NCBI GenBank assembly: GCA_030650275.1
Contig: JAUSEK010000023.1
Location: forward strand, 34,189 to 98,188
Length of the DNA: 64,000 nt
From: Candidatus Omnitrophota bacterium
GTDB lineage: Bacteria; Omnitrophota; Gorgyraeia; Zapsychrales; Fredricksoniimonadaceae
Direction: 5' to 3'
The notes beneath the pieces were generated by a model. It searched no databases. It was not told the origin of the DNA and was given only the letters and a program-made list of their open reading frames with translations. A program made the position numbers and the translations under genes. Shown one piece after another: positions 24,846 through 58,268 of the stretch. Position 1 is the stretch's first letter; each line of letters begins with the position of its first letter.

Positions 24846-24863
24846 CCGGGAAACGTTTCCCGG
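24846..24863 (+). promoter_or_regulatory. perfect 18-bp palindrome CCGGGAAACGTTTCCCGG (LacI/PurR-type operator-like, central AAACGTTT)
   Basis: Read directly; lies between AT-rich promoter region and ATG 24919. Confidence 0.45.
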
Positions 24864-24870
24864 CCCAAAG

Positions 24871-24900
24871 GATGTCATTCCCGCGTAGGCGGGAATCCAG
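24871..24900 (+). repeat. hairpin repeat family copy 1 (GATGTCATTCCCGC-GTAG-GCGGGAATCCAG)
   Basis: 8-bp stem ATTCCCGC/GCGGGAAT with conserved flanks; recurs at 25884 and 52266. Confidence 0.7.
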
Positions 24901-24918
24901 AACATAGAGATTAAATCA

Positions 24919-27900
24919 ATGTTTAAAAAATCCCTGAGCATTGCCCTCATTGTTGCTTTTTTCCTGACCTCCCTGGGGCCTATTCCCAAAGCTCATGCCG
25001 ACGTCCTTAATCTTCCCATCCCCGGCACCATGGTCAACTTAAGTCCTGCCTATGAGCCGGTGATGATCAAGGGCTTGACCGTCCACAAAGACAATCCCTT
25101 TTTGTTTGACTTTATCGTGGATGTGGGTGATTCAGGATTGTCCGTAGGGAACGCAGATCTGCGTTCCCTACAAGATGAATCAACCAAATTAATCAAATAT
25201 TTCCTTGCTTCTTTAGCCATTCCTGAAAAAGACCTTTGGGTCAACTTATCTCCATATGAGAAAGACCGCACCATCCCCGAAGAACTCTCCAAGACCGACA
25301 TGGGCCGTGACCTATTAGCCCAGGACTATATCCTCAAACAGATCACCGCCTCACTCATTTATCCTGAAAAGGCCTTAGGAAAAACATTCTGGGACAAGGT
25401 CTATACCAAAGCCCAACAACTCTACGGCACCACAGAAGTTCCCGTCAACACCTTCAACAAGGTCTGGATCATGGCAGACAAGGCAGAGGTGTTTGAACGC
25501 AACAACACCGCATTCGTTACCGACAGCCATCTTAAAGTAATGTTGGAAGAGGATTACCTGGCCCTTGAGCATCAAGGGCGGGTCCTGCAAAGCCACGATG
25601 GAACCCGGCCTGCTCACCAGCTCGCAGGCGCGCTAAGCGGTCCGGCTTATTCGCCGGACCAGCGCCCCGCACCACGCATGGATGCCCACACTCTGGCAAG
25701 CGACATCGTGCGTCAAATAATCCTCCCCGAACTAGAAAAAGAAGTCAACACCGGCAAGAACTTCGCTAATCTTCGTCAAATATTCAACTCCCTCATCCTT
25801 GCCTCCTGGTACAAGAAAAACCTCAAAGAAGCCCTCCTTAACCAGGTTTATTCCAATCAATCAAAGGTCAAAGGCATAGAAAGGGATGTCATTCCCGCGA
25901 AAGCGGGAATCCAATCCAAGGACGATGTGGAAGCCATCTACAACCAGTACCTTGCCGCCTACAAGAAGGGCGTGTTCAATTACATCAAAGAGGACATAGA
26001 CAAAGCCAAAGGCACGACGATACCGAGGAAGTATTTTTCGGGTGGGATGCAGATAGCTCCGCATGATGTGGCCATGACAACCGATCCGCAGAAACTGGCC
26101 AACGCCTTGCCAAAAGACAGGGCCCTGGTGTCTTTTCAAACAGGGATGATGGACCATGTTGTGGCTGTGACGCCGACACCAGACCGGGCGATGATAAACG
26201 AGATGCCGGAGAAGTTACGGGGAATATTTTTTTTCACGGACAAGGGGGCGGTCTTAAGATTGCCCCATTGGGAAAGGTTCGTCAGGGATGTTCCTGTCAA
26301 AGAAATTGATGAAATCATTGATTTTTTGGCCCCCATAATGAGGGAAAATGATTCTTACGCTTCCATAATGAGGAAAAGGCTCTCATCATCGGTGGAAGAA
26401 AGACCCAAAAGACCTTCCGGATCTCAGGAGGCTACTATTAAGAGAGTCATACTTTTATTGGCTGCGCAAGGATATTACTTCCCTGTTGGGAGCGAAAACA
26501 GTAAAGAGCCTTTTTCTGTTATGGAGATAACTTTCGACTCCGGGGCACGTAACTATTATTTGACGCTTAATGATGCGGACGGAAAACCCAGGGAAGATTT
26601 AACAGCGCAGGAGAGGTCAAGATTGATAGGGAATGTACGAACCGCGTTAAGGCTCTTTAAAAGAGATCTTGGTGAAGCAACGTCGCTTCAGGGTAAGGAA
26701 GCGTCACGCCGATCCGATGCCCCGGACCGGGCGATGACGGCGAGGCCGGCCGCATTGGTTCAGATACCGGTAGAAATACAATTATGGATCAATGTATCGG
26801 CTGGCAGCGCCAGGCCTGAAAAATGGATTCCATCGGAAACGGTTGTGGCGGAAATGACCGACATGATTGAAGGCGTTTCACCCCAAAGGTCCGAATCAGG
26901 AAGGATCCGTGCCTGGGTGGACCGTACAAAAGAAAAACTCAGTCAAGAAAAACGCGATCCATTAATAGGGTTGAGAGAAGCGATTTCCATGACTGGATCT
27001 TCGCCGGACCAGCCCATATCCAGCAAATTGAGATCCACGGTCAAAAGACGAGTTTTTCTTCATGTCTCGTCCATTCCCGGGGATGAGCGGACTTCGCCTG
27101 AAACCGTTATTGCCGTCATCAATGAGATGATCAGCAAACAGGTTCCTCTTATGGATGAAACGTCAGATTCGATTCGGCAGTGGGTGAGGTCGCAACAACA
27201 AAGATATCCCGGTGATCAAGAAGAACAACTTGTGCAATTGCGGGAAGGTATTACCCGTGCTGTCGCAGCCGCCGCCCCGGACCGGGCGATGGTGGGCAAG
27301 CCACGGACATTGGATGGAATGATGGATCTTGAAGTTGCACGCATGGTGGTACGAATCAAGCGGTCTATGGAGCTCGTAGAAAGAACAATGGAGAGCGCAG
27401 GCAGGATTGTGCGGTGGTATTCCACAAATAAAAGCGGGTTGACCCCGCAAAGCATAGGAAGCCTTCAGGAGGCGCACACAATATTAGAGTATTATTTGGC
27501 TATATGGAAAATAGATTTAGAAAAATTGGAAACTGTTTTTACGGGTTCTTCCCCGGAAGATTATCAGACCATTGCACCGGCCCTACGCGCCGATATCCGG
27601 CAGGCGAGATCATTAATAGAGAGAATAGCATCCTTACTTCCCAGAGAAAGCGCTGTAGCACCGGACCAGGCGATGATGGGACCGAACCAGCCCAGGTCGC
27701 AGAGCGAAGCCTTGAACATGGCCCTTCAAATCCTGGATCATATTACTGGCACGGATTATCAAAATGCCAAGAGGATTCTTTTTGAAAAGATCCTTGAATT
27801 AAAATTTGGGGCGTTCGGTGAGGCAGTGGTTATCAAGGACCCGCAGCACATCCTTCCTTTATTTGAACTGACCAGAATAGATCCGCCCAGGGCCGAGATC

Positions 27901-28359
27901 ATGGAGGGGCTGGCGGACCTGATCAGTGATGGCATCCTTGATCCCGAGGCTGTGCGTGACATTGTGACCATGGAGGATATCAGGCACTACCGGCGGATAA
28001 ACGCCATGCAAATAGAAACAATAGGGGCAGGGTCACCGGCGGGAGATCTTATACATGCGTTGGAGATATTTGTCGGCGTGGTCACAGATGACAGCGTGTC
28101 CGGCGCCAAAGGCCCGGACCAGGCGATGGCGGCCAAGGGTGGTATTGACCTGAACGCCGGAAACATGAAGTGGAGCGTCCGTAAGGATGGGAGCGGTGTT
28201 GAGATGAAGGTTGACCCGGCCCTGATCGAGCGCATCAAACGCGAAGGCATTGACAGTTTGACGCCGGTGATCTTTCGCGTCACGCCGGTGGTGAGTATTT
28301 GGCCTTTGGTTGGTTTAGATCCGCCCAAAAAGGAAGAAGAGCGTTTGGTCGGGGTGTAA
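24919..28359 (+). CDS. 1146-aa secreted protein with seven reiterated [AP]PD[RQ]AM motifs; no recognised catalytic domain
   Basis: Signal peptide then long ORF with strong coding periodicity; repeated DNA core CCGGACCGGGCGATG / CCGGACCAGGCGATG at 25641, 26175, 26716, 27001, 27285, 27661, 28117. Confidence 0.6.
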   Translation: MFKKSLSIALIVAFFLTSLGPIPKAHADVLNLPIPGTMVNLSPAYEPVMIKGLTVHKDNPFLFDFIVDVGDSGLSVGNADLRSLQDESTKLIKYFLASLAIPEKDLWVNLSPYEKDRTIPEELSKTDMGRDLLAQDYILKQITASLIYPEKALGKTFWDKVYTKAQQLYGTTEVPVNTFNKVWIMADKAEVFERNNTAFVTDSHLKVMLEEDYLALEHQGRVLQSHDGTRPAHQLAGALSGPAYSPDQRPAPRMDAHTLASDIVRQIILPELEKEVNTGKNFANLRQIFNSLILASWYKKNLKEALLNQVYSNQSKVKGIERDVIPAKAGIQSKDDVEAIYNQYLAAYKKGVFNYIKEDIDKAKGTTIPRKYFSGGMQIAPHDVAMTTDPQKLANALPKDRALVSFQTGMMDHVVAVTPTPDRAMINEMPEKLRGIFFFTDKGAVLRLPHWERFVRDVPVKEIDEIIDFLAPIMRENDSYASIMRKRLSSSVEERPKRPSGSQEATIKRVILLLAAQGYYFPVGSENSKEPFSVMEITFDSGARNYYLTLNDADGKPREDLTAQERSRLIGNVRTALRLFKRDLGEATSLQGKEASRRSDAPDRAMTARPAALVQIPVEIQLWINVSAGSARPEKWIPSETVVAEMTDMIEGVSPQRSESGRIRAWVDRTKEKLSQEKRDPLIGLREAISMTGSSPDQPISSKLRSTVKRRVFLHVSSIPGDERTSPETVIAVINEMISKQVPLMDETSDSIRQWVRSQQQRYPGDQEEQLVQLREGITRAVAAAAPDRAMVGKPRTLDGMMDLEVARMVVRIKRSMELVERTMESAGRIVRWYSTNKSGLTPQSIGSLQEAHTILEYYLAIWKIDLEKLETVFTGSSPEDYQTIAPALRADIRQARSLIERIASLLPRESAVAPDQAMMGPNQPRSQSEALNMALQILDHITGTDYQNAKRILFEKILELKFGAFGEAVVIKDPQHILPLFELTRIDPPRAEIMEGLADLISDGILDPEAVRDIVTMEDIRHYRRINAMQIETIGAGSPAGDLIHALEIFVGVVTDDSVSGAKGPDQAMAAKGGIDLNAGNMKWSVRKDGSGVEMKVDPALIERIKREGIDSLTPVIFRVTPVVSIWPLVGLDPPKKEEERLVGV
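25884..25913 (+). repeat. hairpin repeat family copy 2, in-frame inside the 1146-aa gene (encodes ...RDVIPAKAGIQ...)
   Basis: GGATGTCATTCCCGC-GAAA-GCGGGAATCCA, near-identical to copy 1 except loop. Confidence 0.7.
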
Positions 28360-31284: not shown

Positions 31285-31289
31285 AATTG

Positions 31290-32300
31290 ATGAACACTCC
31301 AAAAAAGATCAGCATTGTGGACGTGGCCCGCCGCGCGAAGGTTTCCATCACCACGGTTTCGCGCGTCCTGAATAAATTTCCCACCGTCAACAAAGACATC
31401 GCCGCGCGCGTCCAGGAAGCCATCGGTTTCCTGAAATTCAAACCGAATCCGACGGCCCAGCGTTTGGCCAAGGGCGGGGCCAACACCGCGGTGGGGTTTG
31501 TCATCCCGGGATTTCCCGGCATTTTCCATTCCTTTTACGCGGTGGAACTCATGCGCGGCATCGGCCACGGCTGTGAGACCCTGCGCCTCGACCTCATCTT
31601 TCACATCACCGACGGACACAATCCCTTAAAATCCAATTATGCCGGCGGGCTTATTTTCGCCGACATCATCGAGAACCGTTCCCAGGTCGAGGAGGCCCTC
31701 TCCCAGGGGGTCCCGTGCCTGGTCATCAATCACATGGTCAAGGACCTGGAGGTCAGTTACATCGCGGTGGACAACGTCAAGGGCGGGGCCATGGCCGCGG
31801 AATACCTTATCAATCTGGGACATAAGCGCATCGCGACCGTGACGGGCAATATCCAGACCCAGGCGGGCATTGACCGTTTGGAGGGTTTCCAGAAGGCCCT
31901 GATGAAAAAAGACATCGCGCTTGATCCGAAATATGTTTTTAAAGGCGATTATTCCCGCCGCTCGGCCCGCACGGCCGGCGAACGTTTTTTTGCCCTGGAT
32001 GATCCTCCCACGGCCGTTTTCGCCGCCAGCGACGATATGGCCCTTGAGATCATCTCCGTGGCCATGGAACACGGCATCAAGGTCCCCGAAGACATTTCCG
32101 TCGTCGGTTTTGATGACAACCCCGCGGGTCTTTTCGGCCCGGTTTCGCTGACGACCATCAAACAGCCGCTGTTTGCCATGGGGGAAGAAGCGGTTAAAGT
32201 CCTCTACGACATCATGCAGGGCAGGCAGGAAGGCCTTGTCCGCAAGGTCCTGATCCCCGAACTCATCGTGCGCGAATCCTGCGGCGCCCCCTCGTCATAA
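31290..32300 (+). CDS. LacI-family transcriptional regulator
   Basis: N-terminal HTH VSITTVSRVLN; periplasmic-binding-like effector domain. Confidence 0.8.
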   Translation: MNTPKKISIVDVARRAKVSITTVSRVLNKFPTVNKDIAARVQEAIGFLKFKPNPTAQRLAKGGANTAVGFVIPGFPGIFHSFYAVELMRGIGHGCETLRLDLIFHITDGHNPLKSNYAGGLIFADIIENRSQVEEALSQGVPCLVINHMVKDLEVSYIAVDNVKGGAMAAEYLINLGHKRIATVTGNIQTQAGIDRLEGFQKALMKKDIALDPKYVFKGDYSRRSARTAGERFFALDDPPTAVFAASDDMALEIISVAMEHGIKVPEDISVVGFDDNPAGLFGPVSLTTIKQPLFAMGEEAVKVLYDIMQGRQEGLVRKVLIPELIVRESCGAPSS

Positions 32301-36666: not shown

Positions 36667-37467
36667 ATGATACCTGAAAATACATCAAAGACCTTAGGCC
36701 CGATCGAGACCAATATCGTCGCCCGCTTAACATACGAGAAAAAGTTGATCGTCACTGTAGAGGATCTCGATCAATTATTTAAACTCGCCCCAGAGGATAG
36801 AAAACAGGTTGTTTTCAGGCTCAAAAGGAAAAAAATACTGGACCCTATAAAGCGCGGCGTCTATGCCTTTTCCCCGCTTGAAGCCGGCCCGGAAGGGACA
36901 GGGATCGATGAACTGCTCATTCCTCCGCTTTTTTTCCCAAAAAAGAATTACTACGTCGGTTACTCAACCATGTTTAATTACTACGGTTTTTCGGAACAAC
37001 TTTTTCAGACCGTATATGTTCTTAATACAACCTTACGTATGGAAAGGATCATTTGCGGTATTTCCTATAAGTTCATAAGAATTCCGGAAAGCCGCATCTA
37101 TGGCCGGGAAATCATTAAAGTGAAAAATACGGATGCCCTCGTCAGCTCTAAAGAGAGGACGCTCATCGACCTTCTTTATTTTAACAAGCCGGTCGGCGGC
37201 ATTAATAACGCCGTCCAGATCTTCAAACAAGTTGTTGAAGAAAAGAAATGTGATATCAAGAAGCTCATTCAATACGCCGCACGTTTTCCAAATATCACGA
37301 CCAGAAAACGCGTCGGCCTGATCCTTGATGATTTAGGCATTACCGAAACCACCCTTAGCCCGCTTATCAAAAGCGTGGCAAAAACCGCGCTGAGTTCGCT
37401 GACTGGATCGCGCAAAGGAACGCTCAACAAAAAATGGAGAGTCATTGTTAATGATCCACAAAAATAA
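36667..37467 (+). CDS. abiEi: AbiEi-family antitoxin / transcriptional regulator (type IV TA, abortive infection)
   Basis: AbiEi_4-like architecture; overlaps downstream AbiEii gene by 23 nt; AT-rich context. Confidence 0.6.
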   Translation: MIPENTSKTLGPIETNIVARLTYEKKLIVTVEDLDQLFKLAPEDRKQVVFRLKRKKILDPIKRGVYAFSPLEAGPEGTGIDELLIPPLFFPKKNYYVGYSTMFNYYGFSEQLFQTVYVLNTTLRMERIICGISYKFIRIPESRIYGREIIKVKNTDALVSSKERTLIDLLYFNKPVGGINNAVQIFKQVVEEKKCDIKKLIQYAARFPNITTRKRVGLILDDLGITETTLSPLIKSVAKTALSSLTGSRKGTLNKKWRVIVNDPQK

Positions 37468-38329
37468 AGAAGAATTTATAAAAACCCTTGAAAGAGCGTC
37501 CAGGAAGAAAGAGTTTTTATTGCCTCTATTGGAAAAAGATTACTATTTAACGTTGGTCCTTTCCCGGGTGCACGAGCTTTCAGAAGACCTCATTTTTAAA
37601 GGAGGGACATGCTTAAATAAGATTTATTACGCATATTATCGTTTGAGCGAAGATCTTGATTTTAGTATGAAGCTCCCACAGTACGAAGCGACGCGCGGCG
37701 AAAGACGCAAGTGTATCCAGTCGGTGAAGGACCATATAAAGAAGTTTGTGGAGCCATTAGATATAAAGATCGATGGATCGGACAATCCTGGGCGCAACGA
37801 ATCCAAGCAGTATGTATATTATTTTGTTTATCAATCAGCTCTACGCCAGGTCGAAGCAAAAATTAAATTTGAGATCGGCCTTAGGTATAATCCGATCCAC
37901 GCGACAGAGAAACGCCAAGTCCAACATAATTTTTTGCATCCCTTTACCGGAGAACCGTTATTTGATGGAGGCAAGGTCAATTGTTTGTCCTTAAAAGAGA
38001 TCGTGAGTGAAAAGCTCCGGGCCGCGGCCTTAAGGAAGACCATCGCGCCGCGCGATTTCTATGACCTCGATTTTATTTTGCGTAATCAATTCAACCTTGC
38101 GGACCAGGAAGTGATAGATCTTTTTGAGAAAAAGATTAAGGAAGATGGCGGAGATCCGGATTTAGCAAAGTATCGCACCAATCTCGGGCGATCCAATGAT
38201 GAAATCAAGGACATGCGTTCACGGATTGAAAATGAATTATTTGACGTATTAACGCCGGGCGAACGTGAGCATTTTGATCTCGACAAGGCGCTGATGAGGA
38301 TAAATGAGGCTTTAAAAGGGCTGAAATAA
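37445..38329 (+). CDS. abiEii: AbiEii/AbiGii-family nucleotidyltransferase toxin (DUF1814)
   Basis: Motif GGTCLNKIYYAYYRLSEDLDF (GGTxL...R.SxDxDF nucleotidyltransferase signature). Confidence 0.7.
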   Translation: MLMIHKNKEEFIKTLERASRKKEFLLPLLEKDYYLTLVLSRVHELSEDLIFKGGTCLNKIYYAYYRLSEDLDFSMKLPQYEATRGERRKCIQSVKDHIKKFVEPLDIKIDGSDNPGRNESKQYVYYFVYQSALRQVEAKIKFEIGLRYNPIHATEKRQVQHNFLHPFTGEPLFDGGKVNCLSLKEIVSEKLRAAALRKTIAPRDFYDLDFILRNQFNLADQEVIDLFEKKIKEDGGDPDLAKYRTNLGRSNDEIKDMRSRIENELFDVLTPGEREHFDLDKALMRINEALKGLK

Positions 38330-51776: not shown

Positions 51777-52190
51777 ATGCATCATACAAAAGATAAAGCA
51801 GATATAGGTTTTTGTAAGGTCATTACGGATCTTACGATGAAGGGGTATGTGCCATGCATACCTTTTTCAGAACATCAAGCGTTTGATCTTGTTGTGGTTG
51901 GGCGGGACGGCACCACTTTCAGGATCCAGATTAAATACTCAACATTAAGGAAGAATGGGTCTGTGGATGTCCGGTATAGGAGAAACTGGGCGGATAAGCA
52001 CGGCGTACACACCAGAATTTATTCAAAAGACGAATTCGATTATTACGCGATTTATTGTCCAGAGAAAGATGCAGTGCTTTATGTCCGTAATACTCCGGAT
52101 TGCCCGAAGTCGATCCGTTTTGATAAGCCAGCCAACAATCAGATGCGGCATATTAAATGGGCAAATGACTATTTGAAAATCAAGAAATGA
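51777..52190 (+). CDS. PD-(D/E)xK nuclease-fold protein, 16 nt downstream of the intron-containing tRNA (candidate free-standing homing-endonuclease-like gene)
   Basis: Motif order E(SEHQ)...D(FDLVVVGRDG)...IQIK consistent with PD-(D/E)xK; AT-rich, low-GC context. Confidence 0.4.
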   Translation: MHHTKDKADIGFCKVITDLTMKGYVPCIPFSEHQAFDLVVVGRDGTTFRIQIKYSTLRKNGSVDVRYRRNWADKHGVHTRIYSKDEFDYYAIYCPEKDAVLYVRNTPDCPKSIRFDKPANNQMRHIKWANDYLKIKK

Positions 52191-52265
52191 TATCAGTTGG
52201 GCGGCGTTATTCTTGTTGAGTGTTTTTGGGTTTTTTGGTAATGTATTGCCCTTTTCAGTACTGTT

Positions 52266-52297
52266 GTCATTCCCGAATGTTTCTGTCGGGAATCCAG
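52266..52297 (+). repeat. hairpin repeat family copy 3 (GTCATTCCCGA-ATGTTTCTG-TCGGGAATCCAG)
   Basis: Same conserved flanks as 24871 and 25884 copies with a different loop. Confidence 0.6.
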
Positions 52298-52402
52298 ACA
52301 CGGCTTTATCGTACAATGGTGGGTGCCCCGCATGTCTGGAATAAACATTATGGAATGCGGGACGACCAACCACTTTTTCTGGGACAAAAAAACGTAGTAA
52401 GT

Positions 52403-52480
52403 GGTGGGTGTAGCTCAGTTGGTTAGAGCGGAAGATTGTGGATCTTCAGGTCGCGGGTTCAAATCCCGTCACTCACCCCA
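52403..52480 (+). tRNA. tRNA-His (anticodon GUG), with encoded G-1 and 3' CCA
   Basis: Manual fold: G-1, acceptor GTGGGTG/CACTCAC (one G:U), D stem GCTC/GAGC, anticodon stem GAAGA/TCTTC, loop UUGUGGA, discriminator C73. Confidence 0.85.
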
Positions 52481-52558
52481 TTTTGACCCTTAATCTGTTA
52501 TAAGGAGCATTGAATTTTGCCTTGACATATGTCAGGATGTAACATAAGATGTTAAATT

Positions 52559-53776
52559 ATGACAATCTATCAACCGCGTGAAATTACGAAAACATTAATT
52601 GAGTCGCTTGAAAACATGCCAGTGGTGGTGCTTTCCGGAATGCGCCAGACGGGTAAAAGCACCCTTCTTTTAAACCAGCCGCAATTAAAGAAAAGAAGGT
52701 ATGTCAGCTTCGATGATTTTAACACTCTCGAATTAGCCCGCAGTAATCCGGAGGAGCTCCTGTCCGGTAAAGAACCCATTACTATTGATGAAGCGCAAAA
52801 GTATCCTGAGATCTTAAATGTTATCAAGAAAGAAGTGGATAGAAATCGCAAGCCCGGGAGATTTCTCTTAAGCGGATCGGCTAATTTCTTGCTCCTTAAA
52901 AAAGTCGCCGAAAGCCTGGCTGGCAGGGCAGTCTATATGACTCTTCATCCATTTACTCGAAGGGAAATGTTAGGGGTTATTAAAGAAAAACCGGCCCTCG
53001 CGTGTTTTATTGATACCGGCGCGTTTCCTAAACGTGAAATCAATCCTGTTTCGTTAAAGGAAATCTTAAAAGGCGGTATGCCTTCCGTATGCCTTGGCCA
53101 GGTAAAAAAGCCAGAGGTGTGGTTTCGCGGCTATGAACAAACATATCTGGAGCGTGATATACGCTCCTTAGCTCAAGTGGCGGATTTGGTATCATTTCGA
53201 AATCTTTTGCATCTGGTGGCTCTTCGGAATACAAAGATCTTAAACATAAGTGAGCTTGCTCGTGACGCGAAACTAAACGTTGTCACTGCCTCGCGCTATC
53301 TTTCGCTTATGGAAGCTTCATTTATTTTAAGCCGAGTTCAGCCCCATTTTAAAAATAAAACAACCCGGCTTATTAAATCTCCTAAAGTATATTTATCCGA
53401 TACAGGGCTGTCCGCTTACCTTGAGGAGATCAAAGATTCAAATGTAAACGAGATGGCAAGAGGGGCGTTGTTGGAAAGTTACGTGGCGCAGAATTTAGAG
53501 GGAATATTTTCCGCTTATTATCCCGACGCGAAGATTACCTATTGGAATATTCAAGGCAGATACGAGGTCGATTTTATTATAGAGGTGGGTGGCAAAACGC
53601 TCGCGATTGAAGTAAAAAGCGGCAGCCGGTGGAAAGAAAGCGATCTGGCAGGCATAAAAGCGTATTTAGCCAGCAATAAAGAATGCCTTGGCGGATTATT
53701 GGCTTACAATGGCCGCGATGTTTTAAGGCTTGGCAAAAACATATGGGCTGTTCCGGTTAATTTATTGTTAAGTTAG
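52559..53776 (+). CDS. AAA+ ATPase with C-terminal DUF4143-type domain
   Basis: Walker A GMRQTGKST; architecture typical of the AAA_14 plus DUF4143 family; lower-GC gene. Confidence 0.65.
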   Translation: MTIYQPREITKTLIESLENMPVVVLSGMRQTGKSTLLLNQPQLKKRRYVSFDDFNTLELARSNPEELLSGKEPITIDEAQKYPEILNVIKKEVDRNRKPGRFLLSGSANFLLLKKVAESLAGRAVYMTLHPFTRREMLGVIKEKPALACFIDTGAFPKREINPVSLKEILKGGMPSVCLGQVKKPEVWFRGYEQTYLERDIRSLAQVADLVSFRNLLHLVALRNTKILNISELARDAKLNVVTASRYLSLMEASFILSRVQPHFKNKTTRLIKSPKVYLSDTGLSAYLEEIKDSNVNEMARGALLESYVAQNLEGIFSAYYPDAKITYWNIQGRYEVDFIIEVGGKTLAIEVKSGSRWKESDLAGIKAYLASNKECLGGLLAYNGRDVLRLGKNIWAVPVNLLLS

Positions 53777-53888
53777 CCCAATGTTAAGAGGCCATTAAAC
53801 AGGCCTGCCTGCCGTCAGGCAGGTTCTGACCTGTTTGAGCCAGCGACCCCCCAGTAATTTTCAGCAAAGAGGAATGGAGTTTTAAAAA

Positions 53889-54470
53889 ATGGATCTACTT
53901 ATTTTCGCCGGCTCTCTGCGGGCCGACTCTTGTAATAAAAAATTTGCCCGGGAAGCGCTGCGTTTAGCCAAAGAAGCCGGGGTTGAGGGCGAATTCCTGG
54001 ATCTAAAGGATTACCCCATGCCACCCTATGATGGAGACATTGAAGCCGCCTCCGGCATTCCCGAAACAACGATCCGTCTTGGAAAGAAAATTGCCTCTGC
54101 GGATGCCCTGCTGATCTCCACCCCGGAATATAACGGCAGTATTCCGGGAGTTCTTAAGAATGTTGTGGATTGGCTTTCCCGCGAAAAGCCGGTATCTTTA
54201 AGCGGCAAGCATTTGCTGCTTTTGGCGGCCTCTCCGGGCGCTTTGGGTGGTGTTCGCAGTTTGTGGCATTCACGTCAACCGTTCGAAGTGCTCGGCGTAC
54301 ACGTGTTTCCCGCGATGGTGGGTTTACCTAATGCTTACAGCGCGTTTGATGAACAAGGTCAATTAAAAGAGGAAAAAACCCTGCAGAATTTGCGGAAAAT
54401 ATTGGACCAATTTATTAAACATGCAAGCACAAACCTGGGAAAAAGTCTATCTGATCCGCCCCACACTTGA
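53889..54470 (+). CDS. NAD(P)H-dependent FMN reductase-family flavoprotein
   Basis: FMN_red fold motifs (LLIFAGSLR, STPEYNGSIPGVLKN). Confidence 0.7.
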   Translation: MDLLIFAGSLRADSCNKKFAREALRLAKEAGVEGEFLDLKDYPMPPYDGDIEAASGIPETTIRLGKKIASADALLISTPEYNGSIPGVLKNVVDWLSREKPVSLSGKHLLLLAASPGALGGVRSLWHSRQPFEVLGVHVFPAMVGLPNAYSAFDEQGQLKEEKTLQNLRKILDQFIKHASTNLGKSLSDPPHT

Positions 54471-54705
54471 CCCCGCACTTGTTGCCAATGCGAAACCGAA
54501 AGGCGGAGAGATTACCATGAAATAATAAATTGATATTTTCATTTTTCATGGTATGGAATGTCGCGCCTTTCACAACTTCATTGGGGGTAGCGGTACTTCA
54601 TGGAAAAGCTATTCATAAAAAGATCGATGTCGTACCGTTTGAAACTATTACAGGCGGGATGAAGGCGATGTTCTAGCAGGACAACAAAGAAAGTAATTAA
54701 AAGTA

Positions 54706-55527
54706 ATGATAATACCTGCCAAGCCGGTTACCAGAAGCATTGCCAACATCGACCGTTTTCAAATTCCTTACCGGATATACGGGCGAGGAGCCGAAGTCCT
54801 CGTTTGTATTAACGGGATCCAGCAGTCCATGGCGATTTGGATTGACTTTGTCCGCCGGTTCTCTCATAAATATAAAATCCTGCTTTTTGATTTTCCCCAT
54901 CAGGGTAAAGGCCTGGTTAACGCGGGTTCTGCGGATGTTACTCTGTCCGAGCAGGTTGAGATCTTAAATGAATTGCTTATGACCGCCGGGATCCAAGAGA
55001 AGCTCACGTTATGTTCGGCCTCGTGGGGAGGCGTAGTTGCGGCGAGTTTCACCATTCGTTACCCCCACCGGACCAAAAAACTTATTTTGGCCGGGATCGG
55101 CACCAAACCAAATCAAACAATGATCGATACGATCACGCGGGGATCGCGACTTCCCATGGAAAACCGCCTGGAAATAGCCGAAACATTGATCAGTAGTTTT
55201 GGCCAAGACCTGCCTTTAAAAGTAAAAGCCGCCATTATCAGCCAATTTGAACGTATGGACCAAAAAGCGTTAGCTTCCTTTTACCAGCACGGCTCGTTTA
55301 TTCTTGCCTGCGGGGCCCTGCATAAAGTGATCGATCTAAAGAGCATCACCTGCAAAACCATCCTGTTAAGGGGCGAAAATGATACGATCATTGACCCGGA
55401 AGATCTTATTTTATTGGCCTCTGAGATCCCCGGCTCACAGATCAGGACGATCAAGGGGGCGGGCCACTTCCTTCACCTGGAAAATGATAAACTTCTGGAC
55501 GCCTACGCAGATATCCTGGGCTCGTAA
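54706..55527 (+). CDS. alpha/beta-hydrolase fold esterase/hydrolase
   Basis: Nucleophile elbow region LCSASWGGV and HGxP-like N-terminal region. Confidence 0.6.
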   Translation: MIIPAKPVTRSIANIDRFQIPYRIYGRGAEVLVCINGIQQSMAIWIDFVRRFSHKYKILLFDFPHQGKGLVNAGSADVTLSEQVEILNELLMTAGIQEKLTLCSASWGGVVAASFTIRYPHRTKKLILAGIGTKPNQTMIDTITRGSRLPMENRLEIAETLISSFGQDLPLKVKAAIISQFERMDQKALASFYQHGSFILACGALHKVIDLKSITCKTILLRGENDTIIDPEDLILLASEIPGSQIRTIKGAGHFLHLENDKLLDAYADILGS

Positions 55528-55536
55528 GAGACCACC

Positions 55537-56655
55537 ATGAACATAGTCCATTTTATTATCAAAGATATTTTCCGGAAAAAGATACGCGTGTTTTTAACGA
55601 TCCTTGGGATCAGCGTCGGTATTTGCGTGTGCATCATGATGCTGGGGGTGGGAGAAAGCATTAAGAGTTCATTTCAGGACACCTACAGCAAGCGTCAGAT
55701 CGATCTGATCATTCAAGAGAAGGACCAGCTGAGTATTTTGTTAAGCAGGGTCGATGCCGGTATCGCCAAGCAAATAAAAAACAATCCAGCGGTCGAAGAT
55801 TCCTCCGCGACGCTTCTTTACATCCATAAACTTAAGGATTCAGCGGTGCCGGTCTTTGGCTGGGAACCGGACAGCTTTTTATTTGATGCGGTCAAGATCA
55901 CGGCGGGGCGGCGTCCGGTCCTTGATCAGAAAGAAGCCATCGCCGGACAAGCGCTCATGCGCAGCCTTAAGAAAGAAAATACCCGGCAGATAAAGATCAA
56001 GGGCGTGTCTTTTGATGTTGTCGGTGAGTACAAAAGCACGAGCCCTTTTGAACAGTATGCGGCCGTGCTCCCGCTGGCGGATCTTCAAACAGCCATCCAC
56101 GAACAGGGCAAAGCGAGTTTTATTAATATCAAACTGAAGCCCGCTGATCGTACCGACGCGGCCATGGAGAATATAACCAGGGAAATAGAAAACAGCGCGC
56201 CGCTGGTTTCGGTCATGCGTTCCGATGTCTTTATCGCCGAAAAAACAAAGTTTATCGTCGTGGGCGAGAAATTCTCGTTCCTGATCAGCATCATTACCAT
56301 TATCGCGGTGGCCTTAGGATTGGCCAATACGATGGTGACCTCTATGTTTGAAAAAAGGAAATTCCTGGCCATTTTGCTTGCGTTGGGCTGGCAGAAGATC
56401 GAGATCGCCGCACTATTTGTGTGTGAATCTCTGGTCGTGTCCTTGATCGGAGGCATGATAGGGATCTTTTTGGGCTTTAAAGGGATCACGTATGTCTTTG
56501 GCCTGACCAGCATCCAGGCCTTTGTCCCTGTACTGGATCTTGTTTTAATAAGTAAAATAGTGGTGATGATCCTGGTCAGCGCCATATTTGCCGCGATCGT
56601 TCCCATATGGATAACGTTAAATTCTAACCCCATTGAGGTCATCCGTGGCGAATAG
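55537..56655 (+). CDS. ABC transporter permease, FtsX/MacB/LolE-like
   Basis: N-terminal TM, large periplasmic domain, three C-terminal TMs. Confidence 0.7.
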   Translation: MNIVHFIIKDIFRKKIRVFLTILGISVGICVCIMMLGVGESIKSSFQDTYSKRQIDLIIQEKDQLSILLSRVDAGIAKQIKNNPAVEDSSATLLYIHKLKDSAVPVFGWEPDSFLFDAVKITAGRRPVLDQKEAIAGQALMRSLKKENTRQIKIKGVSFDVVGEYKSTSPFEQYAAVLPLADLQTAIHEQGKASFINIKLKPADRTDAAMENITREIENSAPLVSVMRSDVFIAEKTKFIVVGEKFSFLISIITIIAVALGLANTMVTSMFEKRKFLAILLALGWQKIEIAALFVCESLVVSLIGGMIGIFLGFKGITYVFGLTSIQAFVPVLDLVLISKIVVMILVSAIFAAIVPIWITLNSNPIEVIRGE

Positions 56656-57346
56656 AGATGCCGTCCGGAAAGAAATTTTTCGCACGGTCCATTTGCGCAA
56701 ATATTATCCGCAAACCCAATCGTCGGCCCTGCATGACGTTAGCTTAACGATCATGAAGGGGGAATTCGTCGGGATCAAAGGGCCCAGCGGCAGCGGCAAG
56801 AGCACCCTGCTTTATATTTTAGGAGGCCTAATTCCTCCGACTTCCGGTGAGGTTTATTTTTATGATCAGCCGCTTCACGGCATAAAGAACAAGGCCATAT
56901 ACCGCCGGGAAAATTTGGGTTTTATATTCCAGGATTTTTATCTGTATCCGCATTTCACGGTATTGGAGAACATGCTTTTCCCACTTCTGCACCATCTGAT
57001 CATTCCCAAGAACATCATCAAAAAAGCGGAAATGCATCTGGAATATTTAGGCCTGGGCGCAAAGAAGACAATGCCGGTGGAAGTTCTTTCAGCCGGAGAG
57101 CGCCAGCGGGTTTGCATCGCACGGGCATTACTGCATGATCCCCAATGTATTTTGGCCGATGAGCCCACCGGAAATTTAGACAGTCAGAACGCTAAGAATA
57201 TCCTCGATCTCCTGCAAAAGATCAACAGGGAGTACGGGACCACCATCCTCATGGTGACCCACGATGATCAGGTGTCCCATTACGCCCATCGCCTGGTCCA
57301 CATGGTGGATGGGAAATTAAATATTTGTGGCATATTAAACTTTTAG
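56633..57346 (+). CDS. ABC transporter ATP-binding protein (LolD/MacB-type)
   Basis: Walker A GPSGSGKST, signature LSAGERQR, Walker B ILADEPT. Confidence 0.85.
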   Translation: MRSSVANRDAVRKEIFRTVHLRKYYPQTQSSALHDVSLTIMKGEFVGIKGPSGSGKSTLLYILGGLIPPTSGEVYFYDQPLHGIKNKAIYRRENLGFIFQDFYLYPHFTVLENMLFPLLHHLIIPKNIIKKAEMHLEYLGLGAKKTMPVEVLSAGERQRVCIARALLHDPQCILADEPTGNLDSQNAKNILDLLQKINREYGTTILMVTHDDQVSHYAHRLVHMVDGKLNICGILNF

Positions 57347-57362
57347 ATGGTTTTAATTATCT

Positions 57363-58268
57363 ATGTTACGGTTTTCTAAAAAGCGTCAGAACCAATTGAT
57401 CAACGGGTCTCTGCGGTCGGTCAAGTGGGCCATGAAGGTCCTGCCCAGGGGACTGATCGAGTTTTTTGTGAAAGGCCTGTTTTCCGTCGCCTCTTTAGGG
57501 ACCAAAAGATTGAAGGAGATCTGCGTCAGGAATTTACAATTGGTCTATGGGAACTCCAAGAACGAGGCGCAATATAAAGCAATAGCCGAAAAATACCTTA
57601 GGTCCATCGGCTATTCCATGATGGACCTTCTTTACTATGTTGACCGGCCCAAAGAGTTGTCAAAGATCGTGCATTTTGAACATGAAGACCATTTGAAGAA
57701 GGCCCTTGAGTCAGGTCAGGGCGTTATTGCCGTATCCGCCCACATGAGCAATTTCCCTTTGATGTTCGTTTCTCTGGTCCAAAAAGGGTATAAGGTCAAT
57801 GTGATCATCCGCACCATGCGCGACGAGAACTTCAGTCAATTTATGTATCATTTGTGCGGTCAATGGGACATCCATATGATCCAGACCTCCCCAAGAAAGG
57901 AATTTTTAAGAGACAGTTTGGGGGCTTTACAGCGCAATGAGCTGTTGTTCATCCTCCTGGACGAAGTGGTTGCCAAAGAAAACGGTATTCAGGTAAAATT
58001 TCTCGGCCGTGAGGTCACGAGGGCAACGGGGCCGGTCTTATTTCTTCAGCGGACGGGCTCGCCCATCCTGCCGATGTTCATCGCGCAAGACGAGCAAAAA
58101 CATTTTAAGATTTTCATTGAACAGCCGTTTAAGGTCCACGGGGAAGGCGGCAAACAGGAAAATATGCTCAAGAACATTACGGGGCTGACAAATATCATTG
58201 AGGGTTTTGTTAAACAATATCCTCTGCAGTGGGGCGGTTGGCTTAATAAAAGATGGGCTTTGGAATAG
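57363..58268 (+). CDS. LpxL/HtrB-family lysophospholipid (lipid A) acyltransferase
   Basis: Lip_A_acyltrans-like layout with HxxxxD-type box SAHMSNFP. Confidence 0.55.
   Translation: MLRFSKKRQNQLINGSLRSVKWAMKVLPRGLIEFFVKGLFSVASLGTKRLKEICVRNLQLVYGNSKNEAQYKAIAEKYLRSIGYSMMDLLYYVDRPKELSKIVHFEHEDHLKKALESGQGVIAVSAHMSNFPLMFVSLVQKGYKVNVIIRTMRDENFSQFMYHLCGQWDIHMIQTSPRKEFLRDSLGALQRNELLFILLDEVVAKENGIQVKFLGREVTRATGPVLFLQRTGSPILPMFIAQDEQKHFKIFIEQPFKVHGEGGKQENMLKNITGLTNIIEGFVKQYPLQWGGWLNKRWALE

Follow-up and report, generated by a model that had tools for sequence, protein, structure and literature searches.

A motif at cassette junctions, and candidate processing signal, in a family of modular exported proteins of Omnitrophota

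The MARTX toxins of Vibrio and its relatives carry a variable, recombining array of effectors between conserved ends, and the linkers of this array are cut after delivery. Their export is by type I secretion and involves no Sec signal; they contain glycine-rich repeats and are cut after Leu by an internal C80 cysteine protease. In the vlsE antigenic variation system of Borrelia, short direct repeats flank the cassette region, and the S41 protease CtpA processes the precursor of the photosystem II D1 protein at ...D-L-A|A..., a periplasmic or lumenal D-x-A| determinant that serves here as a lead only. In this work, we analyze a gene at positions 24919–28359 (plus strand) of a 64-kb window, that is, the whole stretch of DNA under study, which comes from a Candidatus Omnitrophota metagenome-assembled genome (MAG). 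The gene encodes a predicted exported protein in which a conserved N-terminal domain (head) and a conserved C-terminal domain (tail) enclose a series of cargo modules, with a short motif, [DN]-x-A-M, at the module boundaries. We propose that this motif is the junction and, probably, also the processing signal of a modular, polyprotein-like exported protein with shuffled cassettes.

Polymorphic toxin systems combine a conserved trafficking part with diverse recombining cassettes, occur as dispersed paralogues and diversify fast (Zhang et al. 2012, PMC3482391). In these systems, the variable domain is C-terminal and is followed by an immunity gene, and releasing peptidase domains are often present (PMC3482391). 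The cargo of the type IX secretion system (T9SS) consists of unrelated, dispersed proteins with a Sec signal and a conserved C-terminal domain (CTD) of ~70–100 aa, which is removed by a dedicated peptidase (PMC11285876); this CTD is a seven-strand Ig-like sandwich and is restricted to Bacteroidota (PMC11285876).

Like the MARTX toxins, the family to which the window gene belongs has conserved termini around recombining, unrelated modules with a simple linker determinant. Unlike them, it has a conserved Sec signal, the motif [DN]xAM, and housekeeping enzymes rather than toxins as cargo. The N-terminal Sec-type signal (AHA|D) does not fit type I secretion, and neither a C80 domain nor RTX or glycine-rich repeats were detected, with no Pfam match in the window protein and no recurrent one in 46 members. 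In contrast to polymorphic toxins, the family has its variable part, composed of several modules, in the center and a conserved C-terminus. No toxin domain was recognized, and among 80 loci, no downstream gene was conserved that might provide immunity. Flagellinolysins, which are flagellins with an enzymatic hypervariable domain, and other scaffold proteins with constant termini resemble the family in these conserved ends, presumably required for a common step of assembly or export, and in a central region that is free to hold enzyme domains, whereas the family has a Sec signal instead of type III export, and multi-module arrays with a junction motif; the N- and C-terminal helical domains of flagellin were not found in the Pfam or fold searches. 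Unlike the CTD of T9SS cargo, the family tail is predicted to be alpha/beta and is always paired with the head, and no match to Por_Secre_tail or TIGR04183 was obtained in Pfam or NCBIfam. An autotransporter or another type V beta-barrel is not indicated either, given a head of mixed alpha/beta, mostly helical structure, a tail of 72 aa, and no Pfam match. The family shares with vlsE the short, conserved, in-frame sequences on either side of exchangeable segments in a protein that is secreted or at the surface, but no silent cassette archive was found and the cassettes are unrelated whole domains. In the D1 precursor, there is a single C-terminal trimming site, whereas the signal in the family is located between modules.

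Judged by these comparisons, the family would represent a modular, polymorphic exported-protein theme with its own conserved domains and its own junction motif. Neither the head, the tail, nor the motif appears to have been described so far: full-text literature searches yielded no description of the head–cargo–tail family, and a 2026 preprint on Omnitrophota genomes treats giant proteins and hypervariable loci, but not this family.

The junction motif and the family that carries it

A preliminary description of the window gene, made without database searches, had noted a recurring Pro-Asp-Arg/Gln-Ala-Met punctuation with a shared DNA core. Both are real: there are five exact PD[RQ]AM sites (at aa 421, 602, 787, 915, and 1066), with none elsewhere in the six frames of the window, and the DNA core CCGGACCRGGCGATG has five matches (one with 1 mismatch) versus 0.06 expected from shuffles. 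The shorter sequence CCGGACCRG occurs at eight sites in the window, six of which are inside this 3.4-kb gene. The codons are uniform across the five copies, with GAC in 5/5, GCG in 5/5 (background 0.20, that is, 20% of the other Ala codons), and CGG in 3/3 (background 0.16). Five of the seven motifs listed in the preliminary description thus stand. The two others are not true sites: SPDQRPAPRM (aa 246) is not a junction but part of a variable loop within the conserved N-terminal domain, and at SPDQPIS (aa 696) the junction, between modules M2 and M2b, has decayed. A further junction, DVAM at aa 383, had been overlooked.

Across the family, the motif is [D>N]-x-A-M-[T/A/S] and is shown to be a highly specific signal at the protein level. 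Enrichment was counted in the cargo regions of 153 members, where D.AM was observed 488 times against 17.6 expected (27.7-fold); N.AM was enriched 9.9-fold and S.AM 3.8-fold, and E, H, and G at the first position were not enriched. Ala is irreplaceable, with G and S at 0.6–0.8-fold, and so is Met, with L, I, and V at 0.7–0.9-fold. The residues after the motif favor T/A/S, then S/A/T, and the flanks are rich in P, S, T, A, and Q. In the other open reading frames (ORFs) of the window, motifs of the D.AM type are not enriched (4 observed versus 2.5 expected). Each protein contains a median of ~3 motifs, with a median spacing of 186 aa, which is domain-sized; one motif follows soon after the KYFSGG that ends the head, and the last one is usually within ~25 residues upstream of the GGIDLN that begins the tail (median 24, commonest 7–9). 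At the DNA level, the Asp wobble position is at background, all four Ala codons are used (with GCG over-used for the motif Ala family-wide, 42% versus 23%), the x codon is free, and nucleotide information is restricted to codon positions 1–2. The free wobble positions, together with the restriction of information to codon positions 1–2, indicate that selection acts on the amino-acid sequence. The uniform PD[RQ]AM with identical codons is peculiar to the window gene and its orthologue; a paralogue in the same genome and on the same contig, P0081, has varied junctions, including GDLAM, ADGAM, PDEAM, and others. PD[RQ]AM is the local form that the family junction motif takes in the window gene. 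The motif had been suggested to be functional punctuation between modules, and in line with this suggestion, it is conserved family-wide and is present, not absent, at the orthologous locus described below.

A database search returned >4,370 homologues, and all those listed share the head–cargo–tail architecture. They have in common the first ~390 residues, comprising signal peptide and head, at 55–69% identity. The head (~355 aa) contains ~57 invariant residues, including those in WVNLSPYE, TFNKVW, HLKVMLEEDY, and KYFSGG. The tail (~72 aa; GGIDLN...DPAMIERI...TPVxSIWPLVGL) is present in 117 of 120 listed homologues, the set on which tail and architecture counts are based, and is always C-terminal. 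In species-representative genomes, we found >586 loci, all in Omnitrophota MAGs, with several paralogues per MAG and frequent tandem arrays. Head and tail never occur apart in 82 loci, the apparent exceptions being loci that are truncated or genes that a frameshift has split. That the two ends are so strictly paired and so strongly constrained suggests that they serve a shared export, anchoring, or assembly step. The cargo is mostly unrelated between members, such that only 58 of 11,628 protein pairs share any cargo similarity.

No catalytic domain had been recognized in the preliminary description, and the searches agree with it. Pfam and NCBIfam gave 0 matches at E<=1 for the window protein, and Pfam at E<=1 on 46 members scanned individually returned no recurrent family and no model for head or tail. 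The best PDB sequence matches were at E=0.088 or above, with three chance-level matches to the head and none to the rest, and fold searches against the PDB returned nothing meaningful; Foldseek comparison of the full-length model with the PDB and with viral models was uninformative. The head is predicted to be mixed alpha/beta and mostly helical, and the tail is predicted as strand-strand-helix-strand-helix, with a predicted local distance difference test (pLDDT) score of 75–90. No gene is a conserved neighbor of the family genes: neither a protease nor a recombinase is conserved nearby, and no downstream gene is conserved (80 loci).

The window gene is complete (24919–28359, encoding 1146 aa plus stop), and its product is identical to MDO8675675.1 / Q7K71_06145, a "hypothetical protein" on a 325-kb contig of the MAG. 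All features described in this paragraph are on the plus strand. The Sec-type signal peptide (24919–24999, aa 1–27) reads MFKK / SLSIALIVAFFLTSLG / PIPKAHA|D, with a basic n-region, a hydrophobic h-region, and an A-x-A site recognizable by inspection; it is kept in the family consensus (MFKK...AHA|D), and the AlphaFold2 (AF2) model has a helix over residues 2–18. The protein had been called secreted, which is in agreement with this textbook signal and its conservation in the family. The head (25000–26064, aa 28–382), of mixed alpha/beta structure and without a known fold, ends in KYFSGG; its variable loop 1 (25570–25686, aa 218–256) contains the pseudo-motif SPDQRPAPRM and has pLDDT <50 over residues 224–254. 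The junction DVAM (26065–26076, aa 383–386) at the end of the head corresponds to [DN]PAMTTDP in homologues. It is followed by the first PDRAM (26179–26193, aa 421–425; CCAGACCGGGCGATG), in coil with pLDDT <50 over residues 412–458, and by cargo M1 (26194–26721, aa 426–601), an orphan unrelated to the other modules. The next PDRAM (26722–26736, aa 602–606) shares ~45 nt of similarity with the junction at aa 787. Cargo M2 (26737–27003, aa 607–695) is related only to M2b, at 35% identity, and has no homologue outside; the decayed junction SPDQP-I (27004–27018, aa 696–700; CCGGACCAG CCC ATA) separates it from M2b (27019–27276, aa 701–786), an old duplicate of M2. Beyond the third PDRAM (27277–27291, aa 787–791) is cargo M3 (27292–27660, aa 792–914), predicted to be helical and orphan in sequence. 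Cargo M4 (27676–28113, aa 920–1065) is enclosed by two PDQAM junctions, at 27661–27675 (aa 915–919) and 28114–28128 (aa 1066–1070). The second of these ends 3 residues before the tail GGIDLN, with its Asp 8 residues upstream of the first Gly. The tail itself (28138–28356, aa 1074–1146; GGIDLN ... TPVVSIWPLVGL) is a small alpha/beta domain. For M1, M2, M2b, and M3, no relative was detectable among 1.84 billion representative proteins, and M4 was found only in P0002, the product of the orthologous gene.

Some further features of the family were observed along the way. Family genes occur in tandem at the loci L033 (up to three), L044, L005, L052, L049, L030, L051, and L040, and members of >2,350 aa extend past the ends of several loci. 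In ~7 of ~70 loci (L064, L041, L035, L026, L066, L054, and L004), head and tail are in two consecutive, overlapping or adjacent reading frames, which could represent frameshifted pseudogenes, assembly errors in the variable region, or phase variation. At one locus only (L001, 11812–19753), the gene of P0054 is convergent to a complete secretin / PilMNO / pseudopilin / T2SS-F cluster, which is a possible export route. Many of the MAGs bearing the family (loci L007–L082) were deposited as "uncultured Planctomycetales bacterium" (third-party annotation assemblies); as the family is otherwise seen only in Omnitrophota, the taxon given in these records is probably wrong.

Cassette exchange at an orthologous locus

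The gene of P0002 is situated at the locus L083 of a related organism. Nucleotide identity between L083 and the window is 77–82% in both flanks, in the head, and in the tail, which makes L083 the orthologous locus. The cargo arrays differ: X1-M4-ADK-X2 in L083, where ADK is adenylate kinase, versus M1-M2-M2b-M3-M4 in the window, so that M4 is the only shared module and occupies another array position in P0002. The homology of M4 runs from the Asp of one motif to the Met of the next in both genes, with the PDQAM at aa 915 as its left boundary in the window, and the two copies (window 27676–28113, L083 1899–2339) are 76–77% identical at the amino-acid and 84% at the nucleotide level. Furthermore, a 24-nt junction, GCCGCCCCGGACCGGGCGATGGTG, is 100% identical between L083 and the window (27271–27294, at the junction of aa 787), although it joins unrelated modules in the two genes.

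Comparison of the window gene with that of P0002 gave a synonymous divergence (dS) of 1.07 for the head, 0.62 for the tail, and 0.35 for M4, and ratios of nonsynonymous to synonymous divergence (dN/dS) of 0.09–0.10, 0.11, and 0.40, respectively. The dS of M4 is about three-fold below that of the head, which indicates that the M4 cassette was exchanged after the flanks had diverged, either between lineages or between paralogues. M4 is under weaker purifying selection than the head and the tail.

The same pattern is seen family-wide. Internal similarity between members starts at the motif, here defined as -5 to +12 residues of it, in 40% of cases (random positions, 7.5%), most often exactly at the Asp, and it ends at the motif in 32% (random positions, 8.5%), most often at the Met. 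We are therefore confident that the motif sits at module boundaries and delimits the exchanged units, or cassettes. Rapid cassette turnover is documented at an orthologous locus. The local DNA identity of the junctions is best explained as the trace of recent junction-to-junction recombination, and the 15–24 identical nt at the junctions of the window gene and its orthologue provide microhomology for further shuffling.

Shuffling or duplication of modules had been suggested. Shuffling is borne out by the differing orthologous array with its breakpoints at the motif; the notion of the modules as mutual repeats is not, because the inter-motif modules are mutually unrelated except for M2 and M2b. 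The direct DNA repeats in the gene are limited to the junctions and measure 15–45 nt, with one pair reaching ~45 nt, and no tandem repeat was found between 24919 and 28359. An origin of the modules by tandem or internal repetition was rejected, with M2/M2b as the sole related pair and the repeats limited to the junctions.

Possible roles of the motif

In the AF2 model of the full-length protein, head and tail are confident and the cargo is weak (mean pLDDT 58.8); all five PD[RQ]AM sites are in coil with pLDDT <50, between predicted modules. The cargo of homologues includes ADK, phosphoglycerate kinase (PGK), enolase, hexokinase, transaldolase, glutamate dehydrogenase, and inositol monophosphatase (IMPase), and further acyl carrier protein, the RNA polymerase alpha C-terminal domain, XRE-type helix-turn-helix domains, receiver domains, HD domains, and the SMODS-associated NUDIX domain. 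According to precomputed Pfam matches, isocitrate lyase and malate synthase, the glyoxylate shunt pair, occur together within single members (P0034 and P0044). Near-complete profiles are matched by ADK (1–149 of 151) and PGK (3–379 of 379), and only part of the profile by the enolase and IMPase cargo. In each case checked, the motif, or a degenerate HRAM or NGAM, is located 3–10 residues upstream of the native N-terminus of the enzyme, and the next motif comes 6 residues past the end of ADK. P0002 has an ADK of the ordinary short type, with <=52% identity to stand-alone bacterial ADKs, and comparison with these did not identify a donor. Given that relatives carry enzymes and regulators of cytoplasmic type, the family is most likely a delivery or display vehicle for proteins with a role outside the cytoplasm of the producer.

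We propose that the precursor would be exported by the Sec pathway, with the signal peptide and the ~355-aa head on one side and the ~72-aa tail on the other flanking hypervariable, independent cargo modules, and with the motif in short unstructured linkers at the head|cargo, cargo|cargo, and cargo|tail boundaries. After export, an endopeptidase, which could be encoded elsewhere or be the head itself, would recognize the motif and release the head, the individual cargo proteins, and the tail, with the cut falling most simply at D-x-A|M or just after Asp/Asn. A short defined motif at module boundaries in predicted accessible linkers, as found here, is a feature of processed polyproteins, with the proviso that some homologue junctions are degenerate. 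Processing is favored because a strict three-residue determinant is found in exposed linkers at every boundary and brackets native-length proteins. Where the preliminary description had weighed a processing site against a linker in a surface protein, the sequence evidence leans toward a recognized site in an exposed linker; the post-export endoproteolytic step itself is a tentative proposal, for which we see a substantial chance.

Several observations weigh against this proposal. No protease domain was found by Pfam in the window protein or in 46 members, or as a conserved neighbor, and some homologue junctions are degenerate (HRAM, NGAM) or lack the motif altogether, as between PGK and the tail. 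The folded tail contains a conserved DPAM with which a predicted helix begins, so that a structural role, such as that of a helix N-cap, is possible; the residues typical of N-caps are likewise D, N, S, and T. The identical codons in the window gene imply that recent DNA-level copying contributes to the local regularity. Finally, with the cargo modeled at low confidence, the disordered state of the linkers is a weak inference.

The motif might not be cut at all. It could instead be an uncleaved structural or docking linker in a surface-display scaffold to which the cargo stays attached, with head and tail assembling into a layer or filament, or anchoring to the envelope, in the manner of flagellin termini, and with [DN]xAM as a conserved hinge, helix-start element, or docking peptide at the start of each module. 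We consider such a scaffold a serious, though less likely, alternative; it would account for the constant association and strong constraint of head and tail (dN/dS 0.09–0.11) and for heads that remain 55–69% identical among paralogues despite unrelated cargo, as expected if there is one assembly or receptor. The first-position order D>N>S>T also fits helix N-cap residues, the tail DPAM begins a predicted helix, and the invariant residues of the head are rich in aromatic and polar ones (W107, Y113, W158, W183, W297, and others), as in glycan-binding anchors. However, in a hinge or N-cap, Met would be replaceable by Leu, Ile, or Val, and Ala by Gly or Ser, and none of these is enriched; moreover, the five sites in the window gene are predicted to be coil and not helix starts. 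Surface display of ATP-dependent ADK, PGK, and hexokinase would be without obvious use, and the Pfam, NCBIfam, and fold searches revealed no similarity to S-layer, SLH, flagellin, or pilin families.

Two further explanations place the signal in the nucleic acid. If the motif were merely the translation of a DNA-level recombination site, either site-specific or microhomology-driven, which we hold to be improbable, one would expect codons identical beyond the amino-acid need, as seen at the five copies in the window gene, along with the 24-nt identity between unrelated junctions of this gene and L083, the clustering of similarity breakpoints at the motif, and the GCG excess for its Ala (42% versus 23%). 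Likewise, Ser at the first position is mostly encoded by AGY (11/15), one transition from AAY, which suggests that the junctions share descent. Nevertheless, wobble is free family-wide (GAT/GAC at background, all four GCN codons), the x codon varies, and no nucleotide information is found beyond codon positions 1–2. The junctions of P0081, in the same genome, vary at the protein level, twelve specified nucleotides are too few for RecA-type recombination, and no recombinase is a conserved neighbor. A purely DNA-level signal as the conserved function was rejected on account of the free wobble positions across the family, and with this freedom of codons the DNA identity looks like a consequence and a local facilitator of recent exchange. 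The other explanation takes the junction ATGs as internal translation starts, from which the same mRNA would additionally yield every module as a cytoplasmic protein of its own. In favor of such starts are the strict requirement for Met, which has one codon only, the frequent T, A, or S in the next position, as in native N-termini, and the beginning of the enzyme cargo 3–10 residues past the Met. Yet neither a Shine-Dalgarno-like sequence nor any other purine-rich or A/T-rich initiation signal precedes the ATG at 194 motif sites, the strict Asp/Asn and Ala with free wobble are amino-acid constraints, and the motif Met is not at the start position of the enzymes themselves. An internal translation start was rejected for the missing upstream nucleotide signal, and we regard it as very improbable indeed.

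Omnitrophota are thought to be episymbionts or predators of other microbes. If the motif is cleaved as we propose, the family could be part of a phylum-specific delivery system, a wider scenario that, taken whole, we judge to be distinctly unlikely: dozens of paralogous precursors per genome would be exported, head and tail would route them to or into a partner cell, cleavage at [DN]-x-A-M would free native-length proteins, and the metabolism of the partner would be reprogrammed. The cargo, in this scenario, may consist of glycolytic and glyoxylate-shunt enzymes, ADK, transcription and signaling domains, and orphans, renewed by cassette exchange, and may be likened to phage auxiliary metabolic genes.

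The family comprises thousands of members within one poorly understood, mostly uncultured phylum, and neither Pfam nor NCBIfam has a model for it. Should the motif be a processing site, it would imply a new protease specificity and a new export route for multi-protein payloads, and it would offer a list of candidate effectors and a handle on the interaction of Omnitrophota with their hosts. Even without cleavage, the junction rule allows the head, the cargo units, and the tail to be delimited automatically in thousands of "hypothetical proteins".

Upstream region and surroundings of the gene

The perfect LacI-type palindrome reported in front of the gene is present. It spans 18 nt (CCGGGAAACGTTTCCCGG, 24846–24863), with 100% complementary overlapping arms, is located ~55 nt upstream of the start codon, and is a candidate LacI-type operator; its 12-nt core, GGAAACGTTTCC, has no second exact copy in the window. 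At L083, the palindrome is degenerate and only partly conserved; conservation is good in the promoter-like region that precedes it. A LacI-family gene is found 3 kb downstream of the window gene, at 31287–32300. Given the partial conservation at L083 and the lack of a second copy in the window, control by LacI is no more than plausible.

A hairpin element (GTCATTCCCGCG-nnn-GCGGGAATCCAG) has two copies in the window, both at this gene and on the plus strand. One (TTCCCGC-GTAG-GCGGGAA, 24878–24895) is in the 5' untranslated region and is missing upstream at L083; the second (25892–25909) is in frame in variable loop 2 of the head, where it is read as VIPAKAGIQ (aa 325–333). L083 carries the element in loop 1 of the head (1019–1052), not in loop 2. 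Among the homologues, many translated palindromic-repeat insertions are found in the same two loops (VIPAKAGIQ/H, VIASEAKQSQQ, VILSEAKDLNK, and TRGHVP..VSPSTLPS), and loop 1 is variable in length.

The gene had been placed in a cluster of secreted glycan-related proteins; the neighbors form a sugar-utilization cluster instead, with GH94, a major facilitator superfamily protein, an ABC binding protein and permease, and a GH2-like tetratricopeptide repeat (TPR) protein upstream. Downstream are genes for a TPR protein, an unknown protein, and a coiled-coil protein. Farther along the window, a pair of AbiEi antitoxin and AbiEii nucleotidyltransferase toxin genes (36667–38329) is situated in an island of low GC content (0.45 versus ~0.56). 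A second low-GC stretch (52001–58000, 0.44–0.48) encodes a DUF4143 AAA ATPase, an alpha/beta hydrolase, a MacB-type ABC transporter pair, and a lipid A acyltransferase.

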